Origin: a virus
IMG/VR virus record: IMGVR_UViG_3300025093_000019
Span: 1-64,000 of that record
Length of the DNA stretch: 64,000 bases
Direction: 5' to 3' (one strand)
The translations under genes were made by a program, and so were the position numbers. The notes beneath the pieces are model-generated. The model had not been told where the DNA came from and did no database searches. It saw nothing but the letters and a program-made list of their open reading frames with translations. Each line of letters starts with the position of its first letter. Position 1 is the stretch's first letter. Positions 25,701 to 41,304 of this stretch are shown here, in pieces.

Positions 25701-28268
25701 TTGAAGTGATAGATCTTTTTTCTGTCTTTGTAGATCTTTTAATTGTTCTTCTAACTCAGCAGTTTTTTCAGCATTCCCTACATTTTCAGCCATCTCGTTA
25801 TTTAAGGCTTCTATCTCTCTTTGTAAGCCTTGTGAAAACTTCTGATACTCAAAGGCTTCTCTAAGCAATGCTTTACCTTCCATGTTAGACATCATCTCTT
25901 CAATGATTCTAGGATTAGGCCTTCCATTCTTTTCGCCTTGTCTTGCTATTTCTTTTTTGATGGTTTCAAAAAGCTTTACAGACTCATCAAGCTCTTGCTT
26001 AAATATTCTGTAATTCTCTTCATGAATACTGATTGAGTTCGGATCATTCTCATCTACTAGTTTACCATCACTAGTAACATCTGTAGGACCAAATGTACCC
26101 ATTGTTCCTTGAACCTTCCCAAATGCCTCATCAGCTTTTTTGTAAAGAATATCTTGATTTCCTGAAACAATAAAGTCAGCAATCATACCATCTCTTGTAG
26201 GTCTTGTGCTTGTGTTTCCATTCATGGCATTTGTGATACCTTGAATACTACCCATAAATCCACCACCTATAGCACCAAGCCAAAACTCTTGTGCTATCTC
26301 TCCTTTAGTGTTATTCCAGTAGTTACTAAAGAAACCATCGTTATGATTGTAATAATTAAACATACCGCCTTCTGGTATATTCTCAATCATGTTTACATTT
26401 TTCTCGTAAGTCTCTTTAGATATTTCTCTTCTTTGCTGATGTTTTTTATCCCACTCGTAATACTTACCGTCTTTAGCTTCGTATTTATATCGATCGGCTT
26501 TAATTCTAGCCTCTCTATTTTGAGAGCTAACTATGTAATCATTAATAGTAGTGTAAGCACCTTCAAGTCTTCCTTCTATAACTTCTTCAGTACCTTCTTC
26601 TAAAGCTGCCTTCATAAAGGTTGGCATCTTTTCATAAGCGTATGAACCACCTCTTTTAGTAAGCTCCCATGTTTTCTTTCCTAAGTTTTTACTGTGTCCT
26701 AAAAGCCTATTAACTAACATCTTAGATGCAGCTTTAGTTTCTTCTTCTGTCAACTCCTTAGCTGTTTTTCCAAACGAACCAGCTGCAATATCAATAATTT
26801 CTCTTTTGATAAGTTCGTCAGCATCAGATTTAACTAAAAATCTTTGTAACCCATCATCCAAGATGTTTGGGCCAAACCTTTCAACAGCAAATGCTGTAGC
26901 AAGCATAGGACCATAAAGAAGTGTTTGCTGATCTTCAGTAAGACCTATTTCGTAACCGGTTCTTTTTAAACCGTCAGCAGCTTGAATTGCCATTAATCCT
27001 GCACCAAGTCTTGTTCCAAGTTTTTGAAGCTTATGTAACTTTTCTATATCAGTAACACCCCTAGCTGCTGCCAACTTTGTAGGTAATTTTCTTGTTATAA
27101 CCATTTCTAGAATTTGGCCAATAACAGCACCTGAATGCCATGCCAATGCAGTTCCATTATCATTCCAAGAAACATCTAAAACATCTTGAGGAGTACTTAC
27201 GGAAGCCCAAGAAGCTAAATTCTTAAAATACTTATCGCCTTGATCTAAAAAATCATCATCTCTTCCCGGAACATGATCTATTCCACTAAAAGTGTATATT
27301 CCATATTGTGAATTCGTTCTCTGTAAAACATCATTAATCCAGTCAGTTAAACCAACAATACCAGAAGGTATTTGAGCTAAAGTATTAACTACCACCTGGT
27401 CCCAAAGGTTTTCATACCATGTAGAATACATTGCTTTAGGACCATTTGAAGCAAATATAGCATCAGAATTATACACATCATCATGAGCAGAAACTTCTCT
27501 AGCAACAGGAACACCTTCTCCATCGTAATCGACAATAAGAACTGTATTTGATTCTGGACCTGGAAAAAGACCTGCACCCCAAGGGCCAAACCACTCATCA
27601 CCATCTTTGTCTAAGTCACCAACTCTTATTTCCTGTCCATCTTCTGTGACTATAGTTTTGTAGTTTCGCTTATTAGGATCATAGCCACTATCTTCATCAC
27701 CTTCATTTACAATAGGTAGATAGTAACCCATATCATAGGCTAACTGCTGATCTGTTTTTTGTCTAATAACTTTACCAGTCTGATCAAACCTCCATCTGGT
27801 ATCACGACCAAAAATATTATAAACTCTTGGCTGATGATATCCTCCTGGATCTTTTAATTCAGCCCAAGGTGAAGTCCATGTTCTTAAATGGTCAGTTATA
27901 CCAAGACCATTGTCATAAACACCTTGTTTATAGTTTTTGTATTGATTAGAGTATGTTTCATATCTTTGTTCAAAATCTGCATCACTAGGTTTAATTCCTA
28001 TTTTTTTTGCAGTCTCATTGTAGCTTTTTCTAGCAAATTCTTTATCTCCTAGAGTTACGTTTATTGTTGGATCGTTCATTACCTTTCGGTATATTCTTTC
28101 ATCATCCAACCCATACATTTTGTATGTAAAATAATCACGATCTGAAGATCCAACTAATGCTTCTTGATTTCCTCCGTTTCCACCAGTATTGTTTCCTGCT
28201 GGCGTTGGATTTGTATCACCGCCTCCTTGATAGTTTTTTCTAACTACAATTTCGTTTTTCTTTTTCAT
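7779..28268 (-). CDS. Giant virion polyprotein (6829 aa): SF1 helicase, PD-(D/E)xK nuclease, crAss-type two-barrel virion RNA polymerase and zincin metallopeptidase
   Basis: Uninterrupted 20.5-kb ORF. Motifs: GFAGTGKT, IDEAS, GDQSQ, QGLEF, TAATRAK (helicase); RG..AH..VE, E...GTID...IYDLKT, QL..Y (nuclease); TDG, GVKTG, NRVP, GGDYDID, ATDNAK (RNAP); HEMLH...EFVAE (zincin). Its position downstream of the muzzle and cargo genes matches crAss-like phages. Confidence 0.9.
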   Translation of the reverse strand: MKKKNEIVVRKNYQGGGDTNPTPAGNNTGGNGGNQEALVGSSDRDYFTYKMYGLDDERIYRKVMNDPTINVTLGDKEFARKSYNETAKKIGIKPSDADFEQRYETYSNQYKNYKQGVYDNGLGITDHLRTWTSPWAELKDPGGYHQPRVYNIFGRDTRWRFDQTGKVIRQKTDQQLAYDMGYYLPIVNEGDEDSGYDPNKRNYKTIVTEDGQEIRVGDLDKDGDEWFGPWGAGLFPGPESNTVLIVDYDGEGVPVAREVSAHDDVYNSDAIFASNGPKAMYSTWYENLWDQVVVNTLAQIPSGIVGLTDWINDVLQRTNSQYGIYTFSGIDHVPGRDDDFLDQGDKYFKNLASWASVSTPQDVLDVSWNDNGTALAWHSGAVIGQILEMVITRKLPTKLAAARGVTDIEKLHKLQKLGTRLGAGLMAIQAADGLKRTGYEIGLTEDQQTLLYGPMLATAFAVERFGPNILDDGLQRFLVKSDADELIKREIIDIAAGSFGKTAKELTEEETKAASKMLVNRLLGHSKNLGKKTWELTKRGGSYAYEKMPTFMKAALEEGTEEVIEGRLEGAYTTINDYIVSSQNREARIKADRYKYEAKDGKYYEWDKKHQQRREISKETYEKNVNMIENIPEGGMFNYYNHNDGFFSNYWNNTKGEIAQEFWLGAIGGGFMGSIQGITNAMNGNTSTRPTRDGMIADFIVSGNQDILYKKADEAFGKVQGTMGTFGPTDVTSDGKLVDENDPNSISIHEENYRIFKQELDESVKLFETIKKEIARQGEKNGRPNPRIIEEMMSNMEGKALLREAFEYQKFSQGLQREIEALNNEMAENVGNAEKTAELEEQLKDLQRQKKDLSLQLKEITSGRRVKENQVNTHLKHFSAENDTYMVAPDGSNHVPPATAMDDVHKRYDRKRAETIEQVKERSKQRKEFESKVLADDFMVDPDISGQYAEDIGDYDTALGKIADLQRKATDLGISEAGREKLIKELQAEKEAILESIPDSSALEPTEEEVAAFKEQEEIMGMTAEDYWMGKLEQAPAGSARNSAFKLLNEIDNTIKNFEASSEVKVGDNVQWKIDGKEQFGVPRKVQSIEDFDGEQFAMVEGREEAIPLSQLSHYGKPQGITPQSPVEFNEDDFKSLYYDTYVDRQGNEISITESLKDLASRTLNEEDLQNIELLERSIRNNSYVVNASRYMSEVGKQHDIGHLKPSAEAEITDAQAKRIQEELMDKAILLESLKIKQGLDVNDKKNKESRLRLNDYKIKNDIINMITALPNLDKEVYEGIEANQARVRDLLNEAESFYADNGNYPIEALDQAHKIIVDIESDLHNFLKGQDSKKVAKELTLYFEKYKSAKKKKLTYLNADEFTDANYDDAYTYQSFSMSTPEGLMTDSLRAKQQFARVYFQNYIQNIARLDSKSFYSSFQEAVNQIRQESGVLPSFEQMEVIKHVYGLLVNPDNAMLMDLEEAITGQSKSDKTSRHMINDFLSRSLFVRGFAGTGKTSLIIKTALSMYSSYKGRNLNIDLSAPSTELQSALASNMMSIRQNGTDQGYNINQLIDRINNNIESFKNTDVIVIDEASSISTPEFKTLVAALKGQNVAKPKVIFLGDQSQMTDINQQARELLAVERKMERTMPTTQVFRSGAADINNFQNAFRINIFSGEEVTLPKGTYDSERNNGLEYFSGSKSQMYDRFADDLNSQDKFKQTNSVLIVYTEADKNAAKGYIQSKINNPNLNLDSVIKTMEKGESYVQGLEFPRIFVAIEKADAKHLYNRAMLTAATRAKKYDDSKAGYALVLSPTGYSEEGTPIIVETSTATDDQIQRMDNFLSSITGSQTNPVGETGTPGNNEGDGPKQNTKLQELSDDQFKGIRNQIKNANKKGKLKKAPDLGAKFKVGGVEFRYVMDGKGLYSVTERKNQDLTNPTKDFNDRSYSLRGQAAHKIVEAYLTRQAPGRNKLFLKSDKEEITNLIQAYNEAVDKHNKSKKAKLSKIEPIGDDADSTFENHPFINDVIQNVAIPIAQRLTKGGSRTLPETIAAVYINDVAGTIDIVDVVGIEDGIPVLDIYDLKTLTPGSHEFFEDTNEADPFEKGFIKMPDGSQKFNNGLNAALAQLGGYARILTKGDEKSGRPEYKIRNVGVVKAMIKDNASIAKVEDTDFIVMPYDSQEFAEYKAYGESMVDNNILPEFKDKNVRNYDDGHSDISQMFVNNNDPTTLVEVTGVYKDVKGTTFYEINHDKESPLTETEFKQMFSTQDVTSIDTLNQNEANGTPERIYKEGAMKHAAGYTFAYGNASQSPQKTFQNTGVFPDDAIELTFRGISRGFEKWYGTELSDKRITAFNLNYDSYVDEQKTIVGTFVTEPNKSNENSKYVSLVIKDDRISGVSYQEVVPGDRAGRTAYWEISVEIPFDAEPANYHAGLIGAAKQVLLAAKNQYHPDGTRNLNKIRKAAEFFDKNPKKESQQGTIGGGWDLQNDHVNFKNEFIKSIKSRLNDGTAAPAVNITFHENIELLNDDGEPELMNNVLLVKADSKTLGEMARFYADSYGKSVGNELNFDQALKYIQDNNYNVIATLPQPEIDFGKRVDGGLKTGEPINYKDKGAVEDLLKKIREGFKGDKNAQSQMNLRSFNLDLAGFRAKGAGQEQGFVGRAKLKSLRQGSVQYGEYKQSWTALKGKLKDKGFQIGTPYWTTNYKTITNAKGKPSKIATWAVDVWKVGPAFDKSTIILQSPEYDSNHYNLIKGELNDLKGTAYTGRDVLKTKAYKLFQQNRGYLIDPDTKAFDQRWPELAEHLYVKNEAEIGLRGVNQKTTPAALLKSLESALDIMDKKISKIMKGKIVQTVDFTSKDKKLNVKAEQESQLLTRAEDVNNYGFYLGTDQIDVSSITHSKGGIVDQTDSDFLRDLGKFNIDPNKRSFSEVEASENDGEYNPDTNEDNPDVLEDPEERKDSFMKFAKNIYGDHGLADEAKKHVAQQIIKFSNFNRDLNTPAMSISDTIANVVNWYKAKSQIIENNYFNLELSDGSKDVKTYADVNGTNASKLKGQQPLLYTVYTFGKNTEALISFINSAVPSLNLSDKKIKKLGVYLAEQIQGDDEILKSLNETSQTNMMDNLDERNFTDTLSDLVKLHIRHTPLRYYTDENTYEVDLDGRTIDEPTIFKVLSDASQKARFENENTKGFNDLQKLKYHLREIFNNAGVGTPTYNTVRSFYEDYFGVTEAAQGPTAVSEYTDPSKKLLSHEELRMGSMVNVATGKSNLAILGYDPDVVKAKGIASDNLISAIITHFGSVTTRSTIDVYSDTKRYTDFDEVTGETFTTSSKFYNAKKSSMAIGSHISQSIKSRLDNTLFSIVDGEVMVSERIRERLVGKNNDISVTSSGVTLKIKGAPDKQVIKFVKGKNKSQIVSFELGENVRTSDIKTLFNLFNIGKLVYDNAINRYMDTVEDTDQDNPDLKVDQAKIAEIAGMWMLTAKEAVDPSISIRSLLEKYYEENAYKTESLDELNEDSTIDSAEIGEEFYKPTDMWRLTQNLGKVQSDSELGNNAMWYYTVDGKKVYRNVNASTIDRLFPNSQISGKNSGSGLKEMVKTIIERTTFDELSNNPNFELTQDESGAYGLEVLNPYLNPESDWEVVDMVRMGGLANERNGSRHGRQMTELDFAEFVINGLFVEDVARGNRIPTFRLPYHNTSNKAGVPVFDIKLPNNPFTLKDGSISVDRQWIKDNVINIFRIINNQRKKSASRIVDVIGNIPGTKLHQVINDTTLDAQNASQQYNEIVESFIADPNTMKWYLADLQTGANRLDIVDAFKRSDLVIDSDYTIRKLEDGNEYVFAGPSAMMEFDRVYNWNNFSRLKRSAEVPKAKRDLAELIEGGFYDEEINAEINTAAQAGVDLDFNAAKDVFFESQLQKDLKEKGITEDKNVDEMIKSIFFRTHMDAANHLKKEVKLWRERGGTATDRITETDWAYPDMTKKTPKGYTWWDVNPTLESFFYMYHFNDFYLSQIVDGNTMQYKGVDNYFKRGSGAVAPLWVVDTSTPRGVGMNTNIAILEDISTQEYDQLRTIFNAKSTTEDTDGLSFENPIYTRLLKNSLGGNELGVMGVGMGKPVYKKTDLATNDSLYIKYASLELTEGILRNSAKARDYFRKMMPGPVLQQLYRSWENGTRTLDEITEEVISTGRASEILGQAVFRSGVKTGARAIQNIDDDVWNVSTTLDNRFFGIQLNAAQDVEKTDKQSQPTQLLAEMGVGSQNIERVGQINSLKAKISDDAISNMMKKFVDEGGLDPDAFANWLKDIGIQQAEQVGELTQYTELLFKSRLDGNISLNLPNMGKIKQQLINQVTKHAIRPKSNGVKMSQAPAFFFDVYESEDGNIYMEKEVEKGEFGDTPLTQRQLRPMEFYYADQPGVKIESLEEFDNAVAAQNVYVKPAEIILPLSYIDQFGFREYLEENPDFSLNDAFMFRRADGKLVNLKKVSDEDLKTFIESQYRSEEGKNGDTFIQQKYKSAEKAIAYVQNLRETTKLVLNRVPTSKASGGFIGEAIGWINDNGNTVYTSSLKNILDGGDYDIDALSVFFKSVGDTGRILDKGVKGDMNSQFDLMYEYYTDPSNAKIYMSPINLNPLRRQVADKKAQMERFQNNHHDFGTNAFYYDNIFEGDKMIGVFANIIKNFSYTTHALETLKAQNIQLNQRLAIEDIDSKVIADRLEGYLNAATDNAKELILGTLGATIESSNIIGAAAMLNYTYDQISTLLDQDSVRQVFDRIKYSRRVSSFKKMTIADAIEAQRESLEGNAQDEMDAIKDKMALIEATLAQPDSIVPPIFEEAEIKEDGTYVVLVTDRMGLPERFETYTPEQYQEIKQNMISNMENELENLKSIENDPEPYIREQLDQLGRLEDLSHLGEAVIRLNNVVKFDSQGIPVFDYKLNQQLGQIEYALNQTIDDFTKGRTNVDPKFWESKKRFLPEEDLEKLRLKEEAIRSYIDIPGIVKALPHVVSYLDAVNKMTQWMDVTFIKNSEFVQGLMKKYLRDNKLNDWMSEQSYYSFFKEFDKFNVSLYFSTNYNKNTPGLTMPPLSGTKAVGSYDLSTTTGRYRFGTEFPSYVMKLKEDAYGSPNPSGEQKLLTNNVFLDNLTIRDTNINSVLEIKNASKLTKGQLIDMRADFAKLPRNLKEKFYAYQLMKDGFNFKTNTLYQAMDNEIFVRFSEFLDSVEEAIFDNPDLTFKLNTPEGTTVSRSYERMMDVFMQDALYNSDDKALLQNYEFRAKLWSENPELAPKFFKKNLERSQGLADHVTMTDRDTGEMYMSKVAQTFNSYNPLESNLTMVGKWEGGRDFTLKGYPQVMKKFGDLQNYIDAGQGKSIKITFKNRPSYRSGIVYMPDGSTMHIDRTGGVVGNTVTLRPHVPSAKAIDEYRSNDTKEGLLRAIQERTKHDGHRLIADLLLKANESGWLDKGLVSWLRTDEDADFKEKADQGATVGGYFNWGTTGIKINLDTIYNGKVNKSDPSQYSERVFLHEMLHNFTVYALNIDQDIDLSKFNTAERARVESALKYQRDIKKLYDHVKSKADVKDAEGNPKFENYGFKNLDEFVAEAYTNDNLQKFMKGIDGIPEAEIETEAKSWLSSAWNQFLNGIKSMFGDGTPNQINALDQVIGITNDFIQEGKYEFMSAMDINQDNKIVIDPKGGSYMIAEAEYDVPEAAVSKDIINSLQPSGVIKNFSEYRVDELIDTIYSNIDPKTKTYWYSGEKFYFKDMDEMASKQFIKEEIVPKFTEFEQKYKNTMMDWLSSGAETNPEISKDFFPTKDRRSRYNADVLAEVKKKMDYDKTDVFMRYSEFKDSGNQHIPYIEAFEGYDPIIVIHKSIDDAGRSISIFDITSLRLGKKFLGKGNLFRNFMDDKEAMKKGVSFGNNEGDMRRMLLTLQVMAMKQANPELKIKLVEVMGVHSNDVESSYVLMDNYMDNIKAMREIEPLYEALSPEIRDVINDDTLYEEDYDQPWLYSLRREYQQRQVDLSTDNPNSWEFRTMKGSVSRIEEYLSGVGSREDILEMVKWHMLRLEKQKNPESLKDDREYALLGATLKQLTKTPVAFERISTNDLNLITSYTATTHNIEHEIVNWVQEKTYQTLSKNVDTISKWQKNEFNPLLRAYDERYFLKHPDQRKWNFLQNLAGDKFKPLFKTRMIKDINGNDVEVNSGEIHWDKNDPETKKLIADGTLAPGDVELGKFVVDTLEKEMIKNLIHQNRYFKNKYTEQDAREQLEKIWRKGMVPMISKSVNEMLMKMDTKNAKQAYEKFMYQLSNMDDLYDEANVKQSKDSKKKKILTEMSDIFMSQTGVQSDVFGSDTRMSIMGIDKAIGGHILTDQFANESLSTNLEMIMNLMMSSSNRKRIVESELLPIINGGQAILHNAELMKLEGDQEKSIQYLTSYVNSVIKGQAETTDINLNLPFKEAPVNVDKFVNQALQVTSAFSLGLNVPLGMTSALMNANQFMNTAIANDMSGSGVYGRKDAQKALNMLASKTGRELFEAIMEEYQVADMTERDLMHNPRKKVMDKNLFTSHTMHWTNWITDYYVRGLAAVAAMQKDGSIAAYSVKNGKLAYDENLDPRWEGEDGQAMKEFIKNRLVEDGFMNSVDEAMPRGYELMMQRQLKTIADKYIVGSMDALTQTRLSRGTVGRLFMQYRSYLPDKLYNYFDVEKYSPVEGEWTKKDGEYVWEQRMTKGMVRSMSTLFTELKKAKYNGKEAWMSMSKTDKYNVSRLLADTVSAAIMSFIYAGLTQVDWDDDKKGKQNLLPDSRFLRTLKYGALDLMLWQPSLIADAIVSVPLLETIGRYWEVATGSWQEIDRLVPFSSTVKAVGEVIPEGEE
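11560..11930 (-). other. Zincin-like metallopeptidase domain within the giant polyprotein
   Basis: GGYF...GIKINL...VFLHEMLH (11799-11813)...NLDEFVAEAYTN, the pattern of the MPTase domains of phage polyvalent proteins. Confidence 0.8.
14150..16300 (-). other. Catalytic core of the virion RNA polymerase (double-psi beta-barrel type)
   Basis: Metal-binding GGDYDID (DYDID at 14631-14645), preceded by NRVP and followed by ATDNAK; upstream TEDTDG and GVKTG motifs. Resembles the DFDID-type crAss/phi14:2 gp66 polymerase. Confidence 0.85.
21880..22500 (-). other. PD-(D/E)xK (RecB/Cas4-like) nuclease domain within the polyprotein
   Basis: RGQAAHKIVE...PE...AGTIDIV...IYDLKT...AQLGGY. Confidence 0.75.
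22900..23830 (-). other. Superfamily 1 (RecD/Dda-like) helicase domain within the polyprotein
   Basis: Walker A GFAGTGKT (23775-23798), motif Ia SAPS, Walker B IDEAS, motif III GDQSQ, motif IV VFRS, motif V QGLEF, motif VI TAATRAK. Confidence 0.8.
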
Positions 28269-28277
28269 TCTTAAAGA

Positions 28278-30191
28278 TTATGGCATTGTTGCTTGTTGAT
28301 CTATTCCTTCATCGCTACCCAACATGTCCTTAACCGTTCTCATTTGTCTAGCGTAATCTCCTGTTGATGTAACTATGTTTATATCAGCACCTTTAGCTCT
28401 ACTAGCATTTGGATTTGCTAAATCAGCATAATGCATTGAATTTGTCATATTAGAACCTAGATTGATTTCTAGCCACTCACGCTTCCATTCTTGACCTTCT
28501 TTTGGAAGAGTTATACCATAAGATCCTTCAAGCTCATCTTGTAATCTCCAGTTAATTAAATGAGCTGCAAAATCTTCACCATGAGATGTTTGCCCACTAA
28601 CTATAGGTCTTATTTCTCCAACACCTTCAGTACCATCAAAAGCCATGAGCTTTCCACCCTCTACTAGATCATCGTCTTCATTGATTAAGACTTTCCAGTT
28701 TGCCACCCACTCTTGTTTTTTCACACGATTACCAAGATCATTTGTAGTCCATTCATCGCCATTCATCAAGGTAAGGTTATTAACACCGACAACTCTCATT
28801 CGCTTTAACTCGTCTGCTGTATATTCTGTCCACAATCCATCTAAATTTAACTGACCATTTTGTGCTAAATCGTACATTGTTGTAGTTCCATCCTCCTTAA
28901 CAAAAGCGTCTTGAAATTGCTGTAAATACGGTCCAAAGTTTTGCCAATTATACTGATCAGTTTTATAAGCATCTTTAAGTACTATCTCTTTTCCATTTAC
29001 ATATTCACCACTCTCAGTATAGTTATTTACACCAACTTGATCTGTCTCTGGTCCTGCCCCTTCCGAAATATTAGCATACATAAATTGACTTTGATCTTGA
29101 AGAACTTGACCAGTTTTAGGATCATAATTTTGATAAGCCCACTCATCTCTCTTTTTTGATTCTGTCTTCTTTTGTTTTAGTTTTTCTGCATAGTCACCAA
29201 CTCTAGAAGCAAAATAAAACTCTTCAGCAACTTGAATTTTATCAGGATCATTTAGTTCATCAAATGTAAACTTTCTATTTTCTAAAACTAGTTGTCCATT
29301 TTCATCTCTATAATAACTACCATCATCATTTAGTTTAGGCATTGAAAATGAACGATTTCTATGATACGCATCAAACATTTCTTGACGCAGAAAGTATTCA
29401 TGATTTTCATCTAGTCCATATTTTCTTATATAGTCAACAGCCGCTTTAACTTGTTCATAGTTGTTTGCTGTAAGTCCTCCTGATTGATGAAGCTCACCTA
29501 ATCCAAAGCCAAAACTTGATGTATTGTCTTGGGTTACCTTTGTTATATTGTCCCAAGCACTACTATTAATACCACGATCGCTAAAGTAAGCATTCATCAT
29601 GGCGTTAAACTTATCCATATCCCCAGTTCCTTCATCATAATCAATAGGCATTAAACCTACTGTTCCATCATCATGATATCCTAGATTAGGGTTATTTACT
29701 CTTTGCTCTAAGTATTCCTTTTTTGTAGTACCAGTAATTTTTCCTTTATCGTCCTGATTCCACTGCTTCATCATATAGTTACCACCACCAACATCCCTCA
29801 GTTCATACTGGCCTTGTTGCTGCCCGGAACCATAAGTTCTTAAAGCAATATCTCTAGCTTTTGTTAACTCTAAATTTCTAGTTAAGGCTTGTTTATTGTA
29901 AGCATAATAGTTTTGAGTTCCTGCCAATTGCCTATATTTAGGATCTGCTTGAACCCAATCCATTTCACCTCCATACTGACTATAAAGAGACTTTAGTCCT
30001 GTTTGATAGTTTAGTTGATTTTGATACATCCATTGACCATCTCCCGGAAGACCTTCAACTTCCAGGTCGGGCATACCAGGCATAGCGTCTTGTGGCTTTT
30101 TATATCTTGTAAAACCTAAAGGCTGTCTAGCCCTAGCTCTTTGATAAGCCATTGTCCCAGGTGCATCACCCATGTAATTTACTAACGCCAT
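28278..30191 (-). CDS. Putative virion cargo/ejection protein
   Basis: 637 aa between the cargo genes and the vRNAP polyprotein; call rests on position only, no motif recognised. Confidence 0.55.
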   Translation of the reverse strand: MALVNYMGDAPGTMAYQRARARQPLGFTRYKKPQDAMPGMPDLEVEGLPGDGQWMYQNQLNYQTGLKSLYSQYGGEMDWVQADPKYRQLAGTQNYYAYNKQALTRNLELTKARDIALRTYGSGQQQGQYELRDVGGGNYMMKQWNQDDKGKITGTTKKEYLEQRVNNPNLGYHDDGTVGLMPIDYDEGTGDMDKFNAMMNAYFSDRGINSSAWDNITKVTQDNTSSFGFGLGELHQSGGLTANNYEQVKAAVDYIRKYGLDENHEYFLRQEMFDAYHRNRSFSMPKLNDDGSYYRDENGQLVLENRKFTFDELNDPDKIQVAEEFYFASRVGDYAEKLKQKKTESKKRDEWAYQNYDPKTGQVLQDQSQFMYANISEGAGPETDQVGVNNYTESGEYVNGKEIVLKDAYKTDQYNWQNFGPYLQQFQDAFVKEDGTTTMYDLAQNGQLNLDGLWTEYTADELKRMRVVGVNNLTLMNGDEWTTNDLGNRVKKQEWVANWKVLINEDDDLVEGGKLMAFDGTEGVGEIRPIVSGQTSHGEDFAAHLINWRLQDELEGSYGITLPKEGQEWKREWLEINLGSNMTNSMHYADLANPNASRAKGADINIVTSTGDYARQMRTVKDMLGSDEGIDQQATMP

Positions 30192-30196
30192 AACCT

Positions 30197-30204
30197 CAAA
30201 GTTA
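30197..30204 (-). promoter_or_regulatory. Candidate Bacteroidota sigma70 -7 box (TAACTTTG)
   Basis: The minus strand reads ttttTAACTTTGaggttATG, matching TAnnTTTG 5 nt upstream of the 30191 start; no clear -33 box seen. Confidence 0.35.
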
Positions 30205-30209
30205 AAAAA

Positions 30210-32066
30210 TTAAGATGAATATAATTCGCCTAGCTGTCTTCTTTCGTCTTCAGTCATTTTCATGTAGTCTGAAAAAGATAAATACCCACTTTTTGGATTG
30301 TTAGGATCTTTTCCTGCCATCATTTTAGCTTTGTCTAAAGATTTATAATCCATGTATGCAATATCCATATCCATAGAAGACTTTTCATTAATCAATCCTT
30401 GATCTCTGTATAGTCCAGCTTCTTCTGCGTCAAATATCTCACGAACATTTCCTGCAATCTTCTCACCTTTGTCTGCTGCAAACGCAGATCTAGCAGCTTC
30501 ATTTTGCATATCTCTTTGCATCTTCTGACCAAGCCAAGTAGAATTGTATTGATCTTCTCTTACTCTGTCTTGATTTAATTGCTGGTTTTGCATTGTCCAT
30601 AAAGAAGACGCTATCTTGTTTTGAGAGTCCATCTGATTTGCACTAATGCCTGTAGTACCAACTGGAGATCCCCCCATTTGCTTATTGATATAGTGAGCCA
30701 ATCTAGCTTGCTTACTTACGTCTGCTTCAGCATCTTGTTTCATTGTCTCATAGTCCATCCTTGTAGATGAAGGACGAACTCGAATTGGATCAGGAAGATC
30801 TTTGTATTGACGACTAAGATTCCAAAGCCCCATCCCTGCATTTGCCAATTGCTCTCTTTGAGTCAAAGCTTCACTTCTCTCCATTAACCCAGCCAAAGCT
30901 TTTTCTTCTGGACTTTGTTCTTCAAATTTAGATGTATCTCTAGGATCTGTTGGATCTTTAAATTCGGCATCTAATTCCGGATCGTATAGTTCATGACCCT
31001 CTGGAAACTTTCCACCTGGATAATTATTACGATTAGTGAATGCATCGTCAGAAAGGCGTAATGGCTGTCCTGTTTTTTCCTCCCATGTTGGAAGAGATGC
31101 AGGCATCTGCATGTGATATGGATCCAAATCTTTACCAACGATATAGTTGATTGGATTATCAGGATCTCTCAAATCGAAACCACGCTTACCAGCTCGTATC
31201 TGTTCCTTTTGACGCTCAATCTCTTCAGGAGATAATCCAGACCATCCGCCTCCAATAGTAGACCAATCAAGATCATCGATATTGTCAGCGTTGTAAACTC
31301 CTGGAATCATGTTTCCTGCAATACTTGGATCTCCAGTTCCCATGGTAGGAGTATTGGCATTTACTCCAGCTGCACCCACTCCTTCTCCTTCAGCTACTTC
31401 TTCTGATGTTGGTGATATTGGTGATGTTGGTGATGTTGAAGTATTTTGATATTGAGCCATTATTGATGGATCCATTTCTAAAAACTGGTATTGACTATTT
31501 CCTTGTAGATATTTAGGCCATTCTCTTCCAGCTAATTTATGAGCACCTTCAACTGCACCATCAGTAAGATCGTTGTCTCCATACATATTTTGTATTAATG
31601 CAGCTACAAACTCTAATGGAACGTCTGTTCCACCACCATTTTGATACGAAGGATACTGATTATTGTTATTCATCATCAGCCCATATAATTTACTATCTAC
31701 CATATCCTTTACTTGTTTAGTGGTTCCACCTTTTACTCTTTTGTTGTATGGAGAATTTGGAGAAAGAGCTTCTGGATCTATTCCCAATTCATTTTGCATT
31801 CTATCAACTTGTTCTTGATTCAGGAAATACTCTTTAGATGAAATATTAATATCCATTCCGGATCCTCCGCCTTGGTTCATGCTAACTTTTTGATTTGGAT
31901 CATAACCTAATGCAGCAACAATCTTTTTAACTGATTCAACATTCTCGTGAGGCACAACATGCCCCGGACCAGCATTCATTTGTTTATCGTCTGCTTTAGG
32001 ATTTCCATTCCCCGGAACAATTCCGTAAGAACCACGTTTAGTCATATTTCCAAATAGAGATCCCAT
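30210..32066 (-). CDS. Putative virion cargo/ejection protein
   Basis: Likely start MGSLFG at 32066 (TAATG overlap); Q/N/M-rich, helical C-terminus, YQNGG and NQGG motifs. Confidence 0.6.
   Translation of the reverse strand: MGSLFGNMTKRGSYGIVPGNGNPKADDKQMNAGPGHVVPHENVESVKKIVAALGYDPNQKVSMNQGGGSGMDINISSKEYFLNQEQVDRMQNELGIDPEALSPNSPYNKRVKGGTTKQVKDMVDSKLYGLMMNNNNQYPSYQNGGGTDVPLEFVAALIQNMYGDNDLTDGAVEGAHKLAGREWPKYLQGNSQYQFLEMDPSIMAQYQNTSTSPTSPISPTSEEVAEGEGVGAAGVNANTPTMGTGDPSIAGNMIPGVYNADNIDDLDWSTIGGGWSGLSPEEIERQKEQIRAGKRGFDLRDPDNPINYIVGKDLDPYHMQMPASLPTWEEKTGQPLRLSDDAFTNRNNYPGGKFPEGHELYDPELDAEFKDPTDPRDTSKFEEQSPEEKALAGLMERSEALTQREQLANAGMGLWNLSRQYKDLPDPIRVRPSSTRMDYETMKQDAEADVSKQARLAHYINKQMGGSPVGTTGISANQMDSQNKIASSLWTMQNQQLNQDRVREDQYNSTWLGQKMQRDMQNEAARSAFAADKGEKIAGNVREIFDAEEAGLYRDQGLINEKSSMDMDIAYMDYKSLDKAKMMAGKDPNNPKSGYLSFSDYMKMTEDERRQLGELYSS
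31404..31438. repeat. 9-bp tandem repeat (about 4 copies) encoding TSP/ISP
   Basis: tgatgttgg tgatattgg tgatgttgg tgatgttg. Confidence 0.7.
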
Positions 32067-33565: not shown

Positions 33566-33577
33566 AATTTCTAATTT

Positions 33578-36500
33578 TTAGTTGTGCGACTGTCTAAAAT
33601 GAGTCAACACTGATTTGATAAAGATACGACTTTTTGTTTTCCATTCTATTCGAATTTTGATCCACCTACCACGGAATCTACTGTCAACGTCGTATATATT
33701 ATTTGTAGGATTTTGTAAGTCTTGAGTTCTTATTATTGGAAGCTTCCATAAATTTTCAGTATATGCAGGATCTCTCCAATAACTAGCTTCTGTTCCTTCT
33801 ATCCAAGGAAAGTGTTCTGATATCTGATGTTGTGTTTCGTAAACAACACGATAAATGTTATCTGAGCTTGTACTTAGTTCTAGATTGTCAAACACCTTTG
33901 TAATATCTGCTGCTTCATTAACTACGAATTCCACAAAACATAAATCCGGATCATCATTGTCAAAGAATGTAGTTGCATTTTCGTTTCCTGCAATTTCATA
34001 GATGTCTTTCAAATAACCAACTGATGTTATAATTGGATCCGGATTCATACTAGGAAATGACAATTTACCAAACGCAAAGAAGTCTTCATTGATTGTAAAC
34101 CTCATTGCTGAATCAGCTGTTCTTTCACCATGGAAAGCTCCTTGAAGTTCATTAAATACTATTGTTCTTCCAACATCTTTTATAGAGCAATCATCTAGTC
34201 TTTCAGGGCTTCCATATATCCAAGTGAAATATATGTCTTGATGTTTTCTATCGTACACACTAGTAATACCAGTTCTACAAACTGGGTTATCTAAAAAGAA
34301 TTCAACACGATCACTTTCGTCATTATTAAACTCACAAAGCTCGTGGAGTGTCGATCGATAACCTTGCATGTCGGACAATACCTCCATTTGCATATTACCT
34401 TTCATTCTCCAAATCTTTCTCTTATTAAAGTCAACACCATATATTGCAATCTCTGTTGAAACAATTGACCACTGATGCTGAGATCCAACATAGTCTGTTA
34501 AGTTCTGATGTTTAGAATCCAGTATATCCCCAGTACCAAGTAATAACTCACCTGTAGATGATCCTTGATTAAGTACAGCTTTTTCGTTTACAAAATGCCT
34601 GTTAACCCCTTCTTCTTGAATAGAAAACAATGCATTATTTAAAACCTGTAGAGATTTTATTTCACCCATTCTATAATCATACTCTTTCAGTGCAGATAAA
34701 TCGATAACACGATATGCATCTAAGAATGATCCTGGTCTATGCTTATTGCTAAACATAATACCAACAGGTTTGTTTTCCGGGAAGAAAGGTACCTCTAAAT
34801 CTATACCATTATAAAACTTGCTTGACAGAACTTTATTATAACCCGGATTAAGCAACTCAGACTCTCTTTCAATGTCTTTTACAGCTTGCTCGTAAACATC
34901 TGCATATGAACCTGGATAAAACTTATTGATGAAATCATCCAATCTCATCTCAGTATTTATTTTGTTTTCAGATATAAAAGAGTAGCAAACACCAAAAGAA
35001 TATAGTCTTTCTCCAATTAAGCCATCAAACAATCCAATGTCTATACCACCAGCAGCTATATTTCCTCCGTCGTCTTTTACTCCTGGTCCATACTTAGGAT
35101 TGTACATTTGCTTGTGCCATGTTCTTTGCAAAAAGCAATCTCCTTTGTAGAATATTTGATCATTAATCAGTCCATTATTAGCTTGAACGTCAGCTATACG
35201 ATAATACTTTGATATCTTAAAGTAAGTTGTTGCTTTTACATCATACAAGTCTGTTATATCAAAACTAGCAGGATCTACACTTGTGTTATACAAGTTAATC
35301 ATTCTATAGTCGTATTGAATGTCTGCATCTATGCCTATATAGCTCATATATGCCGATTCAAGATTAATCAACTCAATAAACTTGGTATCAGCTAAATTTT
35401 CTGCTAAAAAGTAATACATTGAATCGAAATCATTTCTTGATCCTTGATTAAAATAAGATGTATAGCTATTGTTGTTGGCTTGTTCCCATGGTGCTATATT
35501 ATGAACATCATGAAGATATTTTATCCCAGTACTAAAATTATATGTTTGATCTTGATAAAAATAATCCTCTTTACTGGGATCTATATCAGTAAATCTTTGA
35601 AAATCAATTGTTCCAAATGGATAAACTAGTGCTTTTGGTATCCCAAGTGTTTTTACAAAGAAATGATCAGATGAATGAAAGCCCCATTTGCCTTCTACCT
35701 GTTGAGTGTGTCTTTTAATGTGGTTGACAAAAGTGAACACCTGAGTAAACAGGTCACTAAAGTCATACTTTGTTTGATAAGGAAAAGAAGCTATTCTATT
35801 AGGTTGATTTAATATTCCTTTTTCTTCTTCAAACATTGGAACTACATCCTCATTTCTTTTTTCTATTTGTGGATATTCACCAATCAAAAAGTAAAGACCT
35901 CTTGATGAGGCACCATCAGCTGCATTATAGCATGGTAATGTAAATCCTTGATAAAGAAGTGTTTCTTGACGCTCTGCTCTTACAATATAGAATCCGGTTA
36001 CATTATCTAAAATGTATTGTGGTATAGATGCAAAAGCATTTGTAACGTCAAACTGAACACCCATTACATTAATTAAGTTTCCAGAAACTGTTGGAGACAC
36101 GTTGATGTTCGGAAATCTATAAACACCACTTGTGTTTGGCGTACCACCTAGATTCCAATCATCACGACCAGCAATTGGGAATGCCTGTGTCTCTCTTCCG
36201 TTCTTTAAAACATAGACAATGCCATAAGCATACGCTTCACCTCTAAAATATCCAGTTCTATTATAGACATTTATTTCGTTGTTATAGATTCCTACATCTC
36301 CATTTCCATTTCTATGCTGTAACTGCAAAGTAGCATTGTGACTTGGAACAATCAGTTGAGCAAAATTAAATAGATCTGTTATTGCTTCGTCACCATAGTC
36401 TGTAGTATCAAAAAGATTTCCTGCAAAGTATCTGTTCTCTAATTGAGTGTGCGTTAAAGCACCATCATACTGAGGTTTGGTTTTTATTATTTCATCTAAT

Positions 36501-37501
36501 CCAGTTTCAAAAGTTCCTTCGTATCCTGTAATCTCTATATCAAGAGTAGATAAATTTGGATCTATTGAATAAAGCTTATCTATGATTCCATATTCAACTG
36601 TGTCACTAAAGTAGTACATGTAGCCTATCTCTAGATAAGAATATGTTGTATCAATATTTGAATACCTAAGCTTTATACTTTTGTTGGTTTCTTTGCCGCC
36701 TTCATCACCATGATGTCTAATACCTTCAGACAAATAAGTTCCTTGAGTTATTTGTATTGCATTTGTCTCAGTGAAAAAAGAAGTCTTGTCAAAGTTTTCT
36801 GTTGAGTATCTAGCAAAAAATATCCAGTTTCCTGCACGAGTTTTTCCAGCCTGTCCAAGGCCTTGAAAAGAAACATCAGCATGTATATCAGATTCATGCA
36901 AAAGGTTTACTGCATTTGGAAATGAGTTGTCCCAATACCTTCTTTTGAATGATGTACAATTTCCATCTTGATCAAAACCAGTATTGTAAACTCTAACCGG
37001 CAATCCTTTCTGAGCCATATATAAGCTTACAGATCCATCGTAATCCTCTCTTGCAAATATCTCAACTTGATTTTCACAATCAAAACCTAGCAAATCTGTT
37101 CTAAAGTATTGAGATAGTGAGTTCTCATCTCTAGGTGTATTTGGTCCTGTAAAATTAAAGAGTGGGGAATATTGTTTTGCAGTTCCCCATCCCGAGAAAG
37201 AACAATCTTGATTTACCAATGCTAATGGTGCAGGATAGCATCCTATTTCACTTTGACCAGTACTAGGGTTTGTTGATGCTATATAGGCAACACCGTTATA
37301 CTCACAAACTCCAACAGGAACAAAACCATCTTCTAAACTAAATTTTGCTTCGGATCCACCGACATTAGTAAGAACGGCAGTTTTTCCATCAACCTCAATA
37401 TAACGCATGTTTTGGATTCTCCTAGAAGTATCCTTTGGTATGATCAATAAATCAAGATCTCTATTATCTCCTTTATGAAACTCGTTTATACTAGTTGGCA
37501 T
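33578..37501 (-). CDS. Tail stabilisation/muzzle protein (P22 gp10-like, crAss type)
   Basis: 1307 aa; N-terminal NEFHKG...D.D...QNMR, internal YFRGEAYAYGIV, GDCF, GSQHQWS, and C-terminal SRFRGRWIKI; position as in crAss-like tails. Confidence 0.8.
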   Translation of the reverse strand: MPTSINEFHKGDNRDLDLLIIPKDTSRRIQNMRYIEVDGKTAVLTNVGGSEAKFSLEDGFVPVGVCEYNGVAYIASTNPSTGQSEIGCYPAPLALVNQDCSFSGWGTAKQYSPLFNFTGPNTPRDENSLSQYFRTDLLGFDCENQVEIFAREDYDGSVSLYMAQKGLPVRVYNTGFDQDGNCTSFKRRYWDNSFPNAVNLLHESDIHADVSFQGLGQAGKTRAGNWIFFARYSTENFDKTSFFTETNAIQITQGTYLSEGIRHHGDEGGKETNKSIKLRYSNIDTTYSYLEIGYMYYFSDTVEYGIIDKLYSIDPNLSTLDIEITGYEGTFETGLDEIIKTKPQYDGALTHTQLENRYFAGNLFDTTDYGDEAITDLFNFAQLIVPSHNATLQLQHRNGNGDVGIYNNEINVYNRTGYFRGEAYAYGIVYVLKNGRETQAFPIAGRDDWNLGGTPNTSGVYRFPNINVSPTVSGNLINVMGVQFDVTNAFASIPQYILDNVTGFYIVRAERQETLLYQGFTLPCYNAADGASSRGLYFLIGEYPQIEKRNEDVVPMFEEEKGILNQPNRIASFPYQTKYDFSDLFTQVFTFVNHIKRHTQQVEGKWGFHSSDHFFVKTLGIPKALVYPFGTIDFQRFTDIDPSKEDYFYQDQTYNFSTGIKYLHDVHNIAPWEQANNNSYTSYFNQGSRNDFDSMYYFLAENLADTKFIELINLESAYMSYIGIDADIQYDYRMINLYNTSVDPASFDITDLYDVKATTYFKISKYYRIADVQANNGLINDQIFYKGDCFLQRTWHKQMYNPKYGPGVKDDGGNIAAGGIDIGLFDGLIGERLYSFGVCYSFISENKINTEMRLDDFINKFYPGSYADVYEQAVKDIERESELLNPGYNKVLSSKFYNGIDLEVPFFPENKPVGIMFSNKHRPGSFLDAYRVIDLSALKEYDYRMGEIKSLQVLNNALFSIQEEGVNRHFVNEKAVLNQGSSTGELLLGTGDILDSKHQNLTDYVGSQHQWSIVSTEIAIYGVDFNKRKIWRMKGNMQMEVLSDMQGYRSTLHELCEFNNDESDRVEFFLDNPVCRTGITSVYDRKHQDIYFTWIYGSPERLDDCSIKDVGRTIVFNELQGAFHGERTADSAMRFTINEDFFAFGKLSFPSMNPDPIITSVGYLKDIYEIAGNENATTFFDNDDPDLCFVEFVVNEAADITKVFDNLELSTSSDNIYRVVYETQHQISEHFPWIEGTEASYWRDPAYTENLWKLPIIRTQDLQNPTNNIYDVDSRFRGRWIKIRIEWKTKSRIFIKSVLTHFRQSHN

Positions 37502-37512
37502 TTTTTAATAGT

Positions 37513-40500
37513 TTATTTAAATCCAGCACCTCCAAACATTTTTTGCATCTGCATATAGTTTATCAATCCACGTTCACCAGGACTTTGAACTGCATCAGTA
37601 TTTACACTTGCAGACTGTACTTTTTGTTGTTCTGCTGGTTGTTCTTCAACAGGAACTTCTTCTCCCTTGCTTTCTGCAATTGTTTGAGATCCAGCCCTTG
37701 TTGCCGTTTTTTGTGCGGCAACTTTTTCAGCCTGAATAAGAGTAGGAGTGATTAAGCTTCCTGCTGAAATATCATCAATTGATCGACTACCTATTGCAGT
37801 AAATTCGTCAAGTTTTCTTGGTAACAAATACTCTCCAGTATTAAACATGTTTCTTCCTAAAGCGTCTTTAAGACCAGGATTTACAATTTTATTGTCTATT
37901 TGGAGTAATGAGTTTTGCCAATAATTTTGAGGTTGAGAAACCATTTGATTTACATTTATTCTCTGGTTTAAAGGCAAACTTAAATAGTGTTTTCTAAATT
38001 CAGGATTACTCATCATTTCTGCTCTTGACGGAATAGATTTTGTTGCAGCGTCTTCTACAGCTTCTCTTGTAATTCCTGTCGGAAGACTTTTTCCTTTATT
38101 TGCACGAGTCATTAAATTTCCTAAGCTGTACTGAGATGCTGCGGCCTCTGTTAAAGGAGTTGCTTGATACATTAAATTATCTCCATATTGAGATGCGTAT
38201 TTAGCAAGTTCATCATTATTTTTTAATGCTTGTTGCCACATTGCATCAGAAGGATTAAATTGTCCACTAGCTATTCTATCTTTTAATTCTTGTAATGATT
38301 CTTTTCCTGTAAGTCTAACAAGATCTTTTCTTTTAAATAATTGACTAGGTTTAGCAACTCCTCTTAAAACTTGATTTACTCCAAGCTCTTTAGCTGTTGC
38401 ATAACCAAGCATTTTTGACGCTCCTGTAAGTTCACTAGCACCAGTAATACCACCAATAAGGTTAGCACCGGCATATCCTAAATCTTTTAATCCTTCAGCG
38501 TATTCACCTTTGTCAAAATCATCAGCAGCATCACTCATACTAACGCCTGCTTGAGTTGCATAATGTAATGGATTAAATACTTTAAAAGCGTCATTTATCC
38601 ATGACTCTGAATCTCCAGAAATATCATATAGATCTTGAGTAGTTACTCCATATCTGTCTGCAACCTGTTGTGCTTTCTCTGGATCACTAAGCCAAGCTTC
38701 TTGACCAACCATTGCACCTTCTCCTTGCATCCATTGAGATCCTGTTAATATAGGATCATCCATAAATGCTACAACTTGCTGTCCAGCTTTTTTGTACCAT
38801 GGCATATCATCCCATATCTTTTGCTCTTGTGCCTGGAAGTTTTGTATTTTTTTCTGTTGCATTTCTGGTGCGTACATAGCTTGAACCAATGCAACATCGT
38901 CATAATCTCCTGTTTCCGGATTAATAAAATCATCTCTACTCAGCCCTAATTCATCTTCCCACAAAACTCTATTTGTGTAATACTCATTCATTGCACTTCG
39001 AACAAATGCCTGTTGTTCAGCTCTAACTTGTTGGGGTGTTTTAATTTGAAAATCAAATGTATTATCAAAACTGCTATCAACAATGTTTGTCACGTCTGTT
39101 GATTCTGCAACTACAGGCATTGAATCATAACCTAATTCTATATTAGGCTGCTGATCACGTTGCTGCTCTCTTTCAATCCTGTCTGCCTCTTCCAAGAGTT
39201 TAGCACCTTCAATAGTTGGACCTCCAGCATAAGCTTCATCCCTTAGTTGTTGAGCAGTTTTTGAATCGGTTCTAGTAAGTAATGGCGGGGCTGGAGCAGT
39301 GTAGGTTTCTTCACCTGTTTCTTGTTCTTTTTGACGTTGCATAAGATCTCTAGCTGCTCTTTCTGCTGCTAGTTTTCTACTGGCTATTCCTTCAGCACGT
39401 TCACCAAATATTCTTTCAAGACCTTCTTCTGTTCCAAAATTAGATTTTATGAGTTCATTGAATGCACCTGATTTAGTAAAGCCCATATCCATGTACTCTT
39501 GAATCTTTCTCATGCCTCTCTCATCATATTTTGCTTGATGATAGTCATATACAGGCTGGAACATTTCATCTATTCTAGCACGATCTGCACCGGTTATTTC
39601 AGCAAGTTTGTTACCTCTATATCCATGTTGCATTATTCCTTCAGATATGTCAGCAACTTCATAGGCACTCAAGGATCCGTCTTCATTCATTACAGGGAAA
39701 TAATTCATATCCCTATACTCATTGAATATCTGATCCATAAAAGGAACTTCACCAGTATATCCTGATTCGTATTCTGCTAGTTGATCTTTTGTAAATGTAA
39801 TCTTAGGCTTAATTTTACCGCCATCTTGAAAGTTGAACCGAGCTCTTATCCCTGGCTTTATTTTGTTTATTCCTTTTTGATTTTTGCCATCAGCTATATT
39901 GTAAGTTCCAGTTAACCCTACAGAAAATTTAGGGAAGTTTTTTGATATACCTCCGAAAGCTTCTCCTTTCCAATATTTATTTGGCTGATAAGGAATAATA
40001 GCTCCAATATTTCCTTCTAAACCAGATGGAATATGTCCTGCACCCATTAAACCAAAGATTCCTTCTGGATTTGGATTAGCAAACATGTATTTGTACATAT
40101 TACTTTCTTTACCTCCTCCAAACTGGTGATTTAACCCAATGTCTATTGGAGTCCTTTCTTCAGGTAAGTTGGCCTTAGTATTTAAAAGTACATTCTTTAT
40201 ATTCTGTTTTGGAGGATCTGTTGGTCCACCATCTTCCATATAAACTTTACCACCAAACTTCCATCCTTCTTGAGGTTGTTCAAGTTCTGGCTGTTTGCGA
40301 TAATCAACTGTAATTTCTTCTCCTGCTCCAATCTTATCAATTGGCATAATAAAATGCTTGTTACCAATTTTTGTAACCCTAGCATTTGGTGTCTCGGAAT
40401 GATTATAGTTTTGTCCTAAATCTGTTGTTGGCCAATTGTCCTCATGGGTAGTTCCGAAAAATCCATCATTTACTGATAGATCTTCACCAGCAAACAATCC

Positions 40501-40551
40501 ATTTCCATGAATTTGAGAAGGTCCTACATATGTCTTTGTTCCCTTTTTCAT
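37513..40551 (-). CDS. Multidomain putative virion cargo protein with an N-terminal SET (lysine methyltransferase) domain
   Basis: SQIHGNGLFA...YNHSETPNA...IGAGEEITVDY covers the SET signature motifs; followed by WKFGG, MEDGG and FQDGG motifs and a Gly/Ala hydrophobic segment. Confidence 0.8.
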   Translation of the reverse strand: MKKGTKTYVGPSQIHGNGLFAGEDLSVNDGFFGTTHEDNWPTTDLGQNYNHSETPNARVTKIGNKHFIMPIDKIGAGEEITVDYRKQPELEQPQEGWKFGGKVYMEDGGPTDPPKQNIKNVLLNTKANLPEERTPIDIGLNHQFGGGKESNMYKYMFANPNPEGIFGLMGAGHIPSGLEGNIGAIIPYQPNKYWKGEAFGGISKNFPKFSVGLTGTYNIADGKNQKGINKIKPGIRARFNFQDGGKIKPKITFTKDQLAEYESGYTGEVPFMDQIFNEYRDMNYFPVMNEDGSLSAYEVADISEGIMQHGYRGNKLAEITGADRARIDEMFQPVYDYHQAKYDERGMRKIQEYMDMGFTKSGAFNELIKSNFGTEEGLERIFGERAEGIASRKLAAERAARDLMQRQKEQETGEETYTAPAPPLLTRTDSKTAQQLRDEAYAGGPTIEGAKLLEEADRIEREQQRDQQPNIELGYDSMPVVAESTDVTNIVDSSFDNTFDFQIKTPQQVRAEQQAFVRSAMNEYYTNRVLWEDELGLSRDDFINPETGDYDDVALVQAMYAPEMQQKKIQNFQAQEQKIWDDMPWYKKAGQQVVAFMDDPILTGSQWMQGEGAMVGQEAWLSDPEKAQQVADRYGVTTQDLYDISGDSESWINDAFKVFNPLHYATQAGVSMSDAADDFDKGEYAEGLKDLGYAGANLIGGITGASELTGASKMLGYATAKELGVNQVLRGVAKPSQLFKRKDLVRLTGKESLQELKDRIASGQFNPSDAMWQQALKNNDELAKYASQYGDNLMYQATPLTEAAASQYSLGNLMTRANKGKSLPTGITREAVEDAATKSIPSRAEMMSNPEFRKHYLSLPLNQRINVNQMVSQPQNYWQNSLLQIDNKIVNPGLKDALGRNMFNTGEYLLPRKLDEFTAIGSRSIDDISAGSLITPTLIQAEKVAAQKTATRAGSQTIAESKGEEVPVEEQPAEQQKVQSASVNTDAVQSPGERGLINYMQMQKMFGGAGFK

Positions 40552-41303: not shown

Positions 41304-41304
41304 A

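Follow-up and report, generated by a model that had tools for sequence, protein, structure and literature searches.

A conserved aromatic/Met-x-x-Gly-Gly peptide in muzzle-adjacent proteins of a divergent crAss-like phage

We analysed the first 64 kb (64,000 nucleotides, hereafter the window) of the virus record IMGVR_UViG_3300025093_000019, and describe here a short peptide motif, an aromatic or methionine residue three positions before a Gly-Gly pair, that recurs in proteins encoded on either side of the muzzle gene. The record is 79,289 bp long with direct terminal repeats and is the complete genome of an uncultured crAss-like phage. From its TerL, portal, crassvirus major capsid protein (MCP), ring proteins and muzzle, we place the phage as a divergent crAss-like phage; the muzzle is at most 22-26% identical to that of any GenBank phage. 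An earlier reading of the DNA letters (the original prediction) had proposed that the motif is a shared short linear signal, either a cleavage site or a docking tag, by which varied effector modules are loaded into the head and injected.

The genes of interest lie on the minus strand in the order ring protein 1, a 1012-residue SET-domain protein, muzzle, proteins of 499, 621 and 637 residues, and a giant protein of 6829 residues (Table 1). This order is kept in eight related loci (designated by L-numbers, with L003 being phi14:2; homologous proteins are designated by P-numbers such as P0001). The 499-residue gene also directly follows the muzzle gene in L004, L005, L006 and L010, and the 1012-residue gene holds the same position in L004 and L005. 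The nine positions at which the motif had been predicted are all exact, and all are on the minus strand.

The Gly-Gly motif is enriched and conserved

The motif was searched as [YFMW]xxGG, with Tyr, Phe, Met or Trp three residues before the Gly-Gly pair. Relative to a naive expectation from composition, the 499-residue protein holds eight motifs (1.7 expected; three of the eight arise from poly-Gly overlap), the 621-residue protein two (0.7 expected) and the 1012-residue protein three (1.1 expected). With the poly-Gly head of the 499-residue protein masked, the three proteins together hold 10 motifs against 2.5 expected (Poisson 2.8e-4), and [YFMW]xxGG ranks first of 400 [YFMW]xx-dipeptide patterns, giving ~0.1 for the window alone after correction for the choice of pattern, which is suggestive. 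Half of the Gly-Gly sites in these proteins (10/20) have Tyr, Phe, Met or Trp at -3, compared with a background of 12%, and -3 is the sole offset from Gly-Gly enriched in these residues. Across the whole genome, the same residues stand at -3 in 10/28 Gly-Gly runs of the three proteins and in 10/114 runs of all other open reading frames (ORFs; Fisher 9e-4), and within the genome the enrichment is limited to these three proteins. Consistent with the prediction that the motif does not cluster in capsid, portal or TerL, these proteins are at chance level, with one, zero and two motifs respectively.

Decisive support for the motif being real comes from the relatives, in which we carried out the check, named in the original prediction, of enrichment over glycine content. 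The 39 non-redundant members of the three families hold 123 motifs, where shuffling within 40-residue blocks gives 29.0, a four-fold excess over local composition. The unforced positions of the sequence logo give the consensus P-x-[F/Y/M]-[Q/E]-[D/N]-G-G-x-[T/I/V], with Pro at -2. Copies also often occur as a double motif with a spacing of 8-10 residues (13 pairs fall within 6-12 residues), exemplified in the window by WKFGG-KVY-MEDGG and MMSGG-KMP-YKKGG, and this pairing suggests bivalent recognition. Codons at the motif vary from site to site, so it is the peptide, and not a DNA site, that is under selection; a DNA-level recombination site was considered and rejected on the same ground. That the motif is a by-product of Gly-rich sequence is scarcely credible: the window-only significance of just ~0.1 after correction and the three poly-Gly overlaps are what could be said for it, and it is refuted by the four-fold enrichment in 39 relatives and the conservation of the sites, with the -3 offset alone being enriched. 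The conserved aromatic/Met-x-x-Gly-Gly peptide is thus real, enriched, conserved and selected at the protein level.

Table 1. Features discussed in the text, with positions in the window (aa, amino acids)
Feature	Position	Strand	Description
WKFGG	40249-40263	minus	1012-aa protein; first half of double motif, directly after SET module
MEDGG	40225-40239	minus	1012-aa protein; second half of double motif, then P-T-D-P-P; left edge of insert
FQDGG	39817-39831	minus	1012-aa protein; right edge of insert
KMFGG	37528-37542	minus	1012-aa protein; conserved GG four residues from C-terminus
VARGG, six residues, YQMGG	33155-33202	minus	499-aa protein; double motif (YQMGG at 33155-33169)
YRAGG	32516-32530	minus	499-aa protein; left border of ~100-aa mobile module
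FEDGG	32252-32266	minus	499-aa protein; right border of ~100-aa mobile module
MMSGG, three residues, YKKGG	32090-32128	minus	499-aa protein; C-terminal double motif (YKKGG at 32090-32104), then basic tail
MNQGG	31866-31880	minus	621-aa protein; in folded N-domain
YQNGG	31632-31646	minus	621-aa protein; in Asn-rich linker
N-Y-M-G-D-A-P-G	30144-30179	minus	N-terminal peptide of 637-aa protein; decayed counterpart of Y-M-Q-D-G-G-P tag
YQGGG	28218-28232	minus	Residues 13-17 of giant; N-terminal copy
1012-aa protein	37513-40551	minus	Between ring 1 and muzzle; SET-like module aa 1-93, then motif-bounded modules
SET-like module	40273-40551	minus	N-terminus of 1012-aa protein
~140-aa insert module	39832-40254	minus	aa 100-240 of 1012-aa protein; alignment A4
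499-aa protein	32066-33565	minus	Gly-rich; directly downstream of muzzle
499-aa C-terminus	32069-32104	minus	Motif, short basic tail, terminal Cys
621-aa protein	30210-32075	minus	Conserved N-domain, motif, helical C-terminal part; alignment A2, model me62e31bd5b29
621-aa N-domain	31725-32066	minus	aa 4-117
6829-aa giant	7779-28268	minus	Single ORF
Zincin-like stretch	11379-11822	minus	aa 5483-5630 of giant; HEMLH at aa 5486-5490
Muzzle protein	33578-37501	minus	Pfam crAss_MUZ 4e-48; motif 1 vs 1.1 expected
Ring protein 1	40551-41324	minus	
Crassvirus MCP	45595-47061	minus	
Portal	48264-50789	minus	PHROG
TerL	50794-52683	minus	PHROG

Motif copies at module borders and termini

Copies of the motif lie at module borders as well as near protein ends (5-17 residues from the N-terminus, 5-20 from the C-terminus), and four whole-module indels end exactly at motif copies. 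Conservation at domain boundaries had been named as a check in the original prediction, and across the relatives modules are indeed gained and lost exactly at motif copies. This fits the idea that varied effector modules are strung on the motif, with a SET methyltransferase module here and lysozyme or transglycosylase modules gained or lost at motifs in relatives.

The 499-residue protein belongs to a small family (16 representatives in 1.8 billion proteins), with the motif enriched in each member, and it found no match by tblastn against GenBank phages. AlphaFold2 predicted the protein to be almost wholly disordered, with a mean predicted local distance difference test (pLDDT) value of 37.8 and a pLDDT of <50 at each motif, in agreement with the predicted location of the motifs in linkers. 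At the double motif VARGG/YQMGG, relatives with identities as low as 32-35% read GGKI[KR] and then [YM]Q[MN]GG. The family alignment (A1) has, besides Met1, no invariant columns other than the glycine pair of YRAGG (G349 and G350). Together with FEDGG, YRAGG borders a module of ~100 residues that is found at differing positions in proteins of 168-889 residues; P0015, a stand-alone protein of 168 residues, retains both flanking copies. P0001 has an additional stretch between YKNGG and the C-terminal tail. The 499-residue protein ends in Gly-Trp-Cys after its last motif and a short basic tail, and similar tails end P0010, P0019 and P0042; because the crAss001 tails are disulfide-stabilised, the terminal Cys may anchor the protein.

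In the 621-residue family, the second glycine of YQNGG (G148) is invariant in 19 sequences, Tyr or Phe is kept, and six sequences have YQDAG. Three relatives (P0025-P0027) carry an insert of ~140 residues between two motif copies, AYQNGG and [T/H/A]FQ[N/D]GG. The neighbouring MNQGG, which had also been predicted as a copy, is not upheld as one: it lies in the folded N-domain, where M66 and Q68 are conserved but the second Gly varies.

The 1012-residue protein begins with a minimal SET-like lysine methyltransferase module. The Pfam SET match is borderline (22.0 bits, cut-off 22.4), and relatives P0044-P0047 carry PF00856. Within the 1012-residue family, an N-terminal SET module is always followed by a motif copy (P0039, P0041, P0043, P0046 and P0047); other genomes have the SET module at the C-terminus, joined to transglycosylase or lysozyme modules. 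P0044, a SET and transglycosylase fusion of another lineage, has no motif, which indicates that the motif is lineage-specific and not a general need of such fusions. MEDGG, the second half of the double motif begun by WKFGG, is the left edge of an insert of ~140 residues. The window and P0039 have this insert, while P0041 and P0040, the latter 95% identical where it aligns, do not; both ends of this indel coincide with motif copies. The insert has alternating strand-like sequence with an aromatic end, somewhat like outer-membrane beta-strands, and the C-terminus of P0043 looks similar. At its right edge, the FQDGG site reads FQEGG, YQNGG, YQDGG or LQNGG in P0039-P0042. Of the instances that had been predicted, KMFGG at the C-terminus of this protein and VARGG in the 499-residue protein have conserved Gly-Gly pairs, but neither fits the pattern itself.

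The motif is in the first 25 residues of 9/17 orthologues of the 621-, 637- and 6829-residue genes and of 1/38 other ORFs, a count that comes from eight related loci and so is not an independent sample. In the window, of these genes only that of the giant encodes such a copy, and the motif is mostly internal. The wider protein set has 12 copies at the N-terminus (6.8 expected) and 10 at the C-terminus (6.0 expected). Short basic tails follow the C-terminal copies, and several of these tails end in Cys. The 637-residue orthologues in L008, L010 and L011 carry the tag Y-M-Q-D-G-G-P at residues 6-12, of which the peptide in the window's protein is a decayed counterpart. Proline directly after Gly-Gly is not avoided (8% of sites against a background of 5.7%), as in MEDGG-P in the window and the YMQDGG-P tags.

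The giant protein departs from what had been predicted. It is not punctuated by the motif, holding two matches against 3.7 expected with just one internal. Its N-terminal YQGGG, correctly located by the prediction, recurs in some relatives and is only partly conserved: it is the same in L006, replaced by MQDGG at residues 6-10 in L007, and absent from L004 and L005. The proposal of a shared short linear signal stands for a selected motif specific to muzzle-adjacent proteins, and fails for the interior of the giant.

The giant appears to unite in one chain functions for which crAss001 and phi14:2 have separate genes. Its sole Pfam match is an SF1 helicase at residues ~1485-1780, RNA polymerase models gave no match, and residues 6631-6749 resemble crAss001 gp49. 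Its zincin-like stretch aligns with residues 242-354 of phi14:2 g065 (BLASTP E 3e-6, 25% identity, HExxH aligned), and a conserved Glu-containing segment lies ~70 residues downstream of the HEMLH. This stretch, which is not matched by Pfam (including MPTase-PolyVal) or PHROGs, is the only candidate peptidase that we saw. Elsewhere, phi14:2 g070, encoded just downstream of muzzle, has HExxH at residues 234 and 461, so some proteins at the C1 position may be zincin-like.

Cargo status and possible roles of the motif

The 1012-, 499- and 621-residue proteins are probably carried inside the particle. We found no homology to known cargo, so this assignment follows from their position beside muzzle, their disorder, and the similarity of the giant to the virion proteins gp49 and g065. 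The portal-binding domain crAss_CARG1 (PF25725) has no match in the whole genome at E ≤1, the threshold and scope of the family searches reported below. Profile alignment with hhalign gave no detectable homology between the 499-residue family (A1) and crAss001 gp45 (probability 0.3%), and a probability of 0.1% each for the 621-residue family (A2) against gp46 and phi14:2 g068.

The closest known counterparts are the crAss001 cargo proteins C1 (gp45) and C2 (gp46). Their genes likewise follow muzzle directly, and they too are rich in Gly, disordered over most of their length and basic in the C-terminal tail; the window proteins carry the motif at far higher density. Copies in gp45 lie at residues 17-21, 260-264 and 559-563 (three against 1.4 expected), while phi14:2 has two in g070 (0.3 expected) and one in g069. 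Two parts of gp45 are resolved in the virion, one on the tail barrel (residues 214-245) and one on the portal (425-552; PMC10172136), so the second and third copies lie just after the ordered segments. Bayfield et al. (2023) mention neither the motif nor cleavage (PMC10172136).

Short peptides on packaged proteins are familiar from other systems. The capsid targeting sequence of T4 is a short N-terminal peptide, portable to foreign proteins, that directs internal proteins into the prohead; the prohead protease gp21 then cuts it off after Glu. Copies of the window motif near the N-termini of putative packaged proteins may be comparable, but the T4 peptide differs in sequence and is N-terminal only, whereas the motif is also internal and C-terminal; the prohead protease families Peptidase_S77 and S78 have no match in the genome. 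Encapsulin cargo-loading peptides, which are short, terminal and Gly-containing, sit on flexible linkers and dock varied cargo inside an HK97-fold shell, with another consensus and one copy per cargo; in crAss001, unlike in encapsulins, the cargo mass sits near the portal and does not line the shell. Adenovirus (adenain) and African swine fever virus use GG-X and (M,I,L)XGG-X maturation sites in packaged core proteins, where, as with the motif, Gly-Gly sites lie close to either end and between parts. At its C-terminus, adenovirus pVI has a short basic peptide with a Cys, a layout like that of the 499-residue C-terminus and the other tails. Sites of adenain and PLpro have the hydrophobic residue at P4, whereas the motif has it at P5 and tolerates Pro after Gly-Gly; clan CE peptidases gave no PF00770 (C5) or PF02902 (C48) match, although a very divergent enzyme could escape. 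The double-glycine leader peptidase Peptidase_C39 (PF03412) was not matched either. In polyvalent proteins, unrelated enzymatic modules are strung together and delivered with the virion (Iyer et al. 2017, PMC5512222). Several unrelated modules also occur here, namely a SET module in the window, SET with SLT or lysozyme modules in relatives, and the helicase and zincin-like parts of the giant, for which delivery would be presumed. This genome has no match to Pfam MPTase-PolyVal, and Iyer et al. describe no linker or glycine motif (PMC5512222). We found the motif described neither by full-text searches nor in the crAss001 papers or the polyvalent-protein paper. As a kind, tags and maturation sites on packaged proteins are already known; the motif, its junction-and-terminus layout and the lineage are new.

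We tentatively favour the reading that the motif is a docking or loading handle on cargo modules. Through the motif, cargo modules and proteins would be gathered, held or ordered inside the particle, with non-covalent docking either to one another or to some component of the virion or its assembly. Every exchangeable module would bring its own copy, and large cargo proteins would require one near the N-terminus. We infer here the packaging of the proteins, the binding of the motif and the identity of the binder. The fixed aromatic, the Q/E and D/N positions and the beta-branched residue at +2 are conserved within drifting disorder, which argues for a recognised signal over a plain hinge, as do the terminal copies that join nothing, the double copies, the flanking copies retained by the stand-alone P0015 and the absence of the motif from P0044. 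That Pro at +1 is not avoided speaks against cutting after Gly-Gly. Several observations weigh against a docking handle. No binding partner was found, and over the wider protein set terminal copies exceed expectation only modestly. N-terminal copies are decayed in the 621- and 637-residue proteins of the window and missing from the giants of L004 and L005. Enrichment is weak in crAss001 gp45 (3 vs 1.4) and phi14:2 g070 (2 vs 0.3). Packaging would be read from gene order only, for proteins with no homology to gp45, gp46 or crAss_CARG1, and the positional pattern of the copies suits a processing site equally well.

That the motif marks cuts into modules and end trimming, by the zincin-like domain of the giant or a host protease, in the manner of the GG-X sites of adenovirus and African swine fever virus core proteins or of the cleaved T4 targeting sequence, is possible if doubtful. 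The module borders and the near-terminal positions with basic tails fit such processing, and only small residues occur at the fixed pair (GG becomes AG in 6/19 sequences, with the last Gly invariant). Most endopeptidases do not cut before Pro, and yet Pro after Gly-Gly is not depleted (8% of sites). A hydrophobic residue at P5 is not the P4 arrangement of adenain and PLpro, cutting at copies eight residues apart would release useless octapeptides, and the 6829-residue protein, most in need of cutting, has one internal match against 3.7 expected. The giant offers a candidate enzyme in its HExxH stretch and Glu segment, shared with the phi14:2 virion protein g065, and such peptidases have been put forward as processing enzymes of packaged polyvalent proteins (Iyer et al., PMC5512222); no C48, C5, C39, S77, S78 or MPTase-PolyVal match exists in the genome. 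In crAss001, a cut at gp45 residue 264 would part a tail-resident from a head-resident piece. Virion bands of ~150, ~270 and >300 kDa are as expected for uncut gp49, gp47 and gp50 (PMC6235969) and consistent with intact RNA-polymerase cargo, which counts against processing, yet those proteins hold few or no motifs. The crAss001 papers report no cleavage and do not state which gel band holds gp45.

It is rather unlikely that the motif is a passive seam, read by nothing: a flexible joint ([D/N]-G turn capped by an aromatic) favoured for allowing in-frame swaps of modules and unfolded threading through the tail. Asn-Gly and Asp-Gly are classic tight-turn formers, the four whole-module indels terminate at motif copies, the motif lies in predicted disorder, and neither partner nor protease was found. 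Such a joint would not explain copies at extreme termini, where nothing is joined, or why the aromatic, the Q/E and the +2 residue are kept over 30-35% identity while the flanks drift. The motif also does not punctuate the multi-domain giant and is absent from the related SET fusion of another lineage, and with its codons not conserved it would not be a recombination site in the DNA. A host-directed role, in which the motif engages a host envelope or cytoplasmic component after ejection or self-associates into a channel or gel, seems improbable to us. Colicin translocation domains work through short epitopes within Gly-rich disordered chains, and the Gly/Gln/Asn/Met-rich disorder with regularly placed aromatics and basic flanks would suit such a role, as would the expectation that crAss001 gp45 and gp46 form a trans-envelope channel (PMC10172136). 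However, the motif recurs in phages with probably diverse hosts, and single N-terminal copies on large enzymes suit an addressing role better.

In a stronger reading, the motif, single or as a double of 13-15 residues, would be a portable label that by itself brings any protein into a crAss-like particle and, by injection, into the host, or, alternatively, the cut site at which C1-type cargo is split into one piece in the tail and one in the head; we consider it unlikely that either holds. If the motif is a loading tag, proteins of choice could also be packed into phage particles with it; if it is a cut site, the published model, in which a single crAss001 gp45 chain spans the portal, would have to be revised. 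The crAss-like phages are among the most abundant viruses of the gut and of marine Bacteroidota and carry megadaltons of protein cargo, and a conserved peptide at cargo ends and joints is a mutable handle on how that cargo is selected, packed and released. The cultured relatives carry a few copies at informative places (crAss001 gp45 and phi14:2 g070), so existing material is usable for testing.

Neighbouring features of the window

Ring protein 2 is also encoded on the minus strand, and the ORF between portal and MCP had no family match. Scans of viral contigs with single queries (muzzle, P0004, P0044 and P0045) found no related loci. The stop codon of the 499-residue gene overlaps an ATG (TAATG, window 32064-32068), and the two genes look translationally coupled. 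As the ATG at 32064-32066 is used by all homologues of the 621-residue protein, the listed TTG start at 32075 is probably wrong.

In the N-domain of the 621-residue protein, 35 residues, D29, D30, H39, S79, S80 and E82 among them, are invariant in 19 relatives whose identity is otherwise 30-80%. AlphaFold2 predicted a small alpha/beta domain (pLDDT 77). Searches with this fold returned nothing at E ≤0.001 from the PDB with Foldseek and nothing from BFVD, a best Z of 3.1 in the wide VIA-align search, and only unnamed viral clusters from the ESM Atlas. A complex prediction of the N-domain (residues 12-135) with residues 325-370 of the 499-residue protein scored 0.02 (mark 0.32). The domain could be an enzyme or a key interface.

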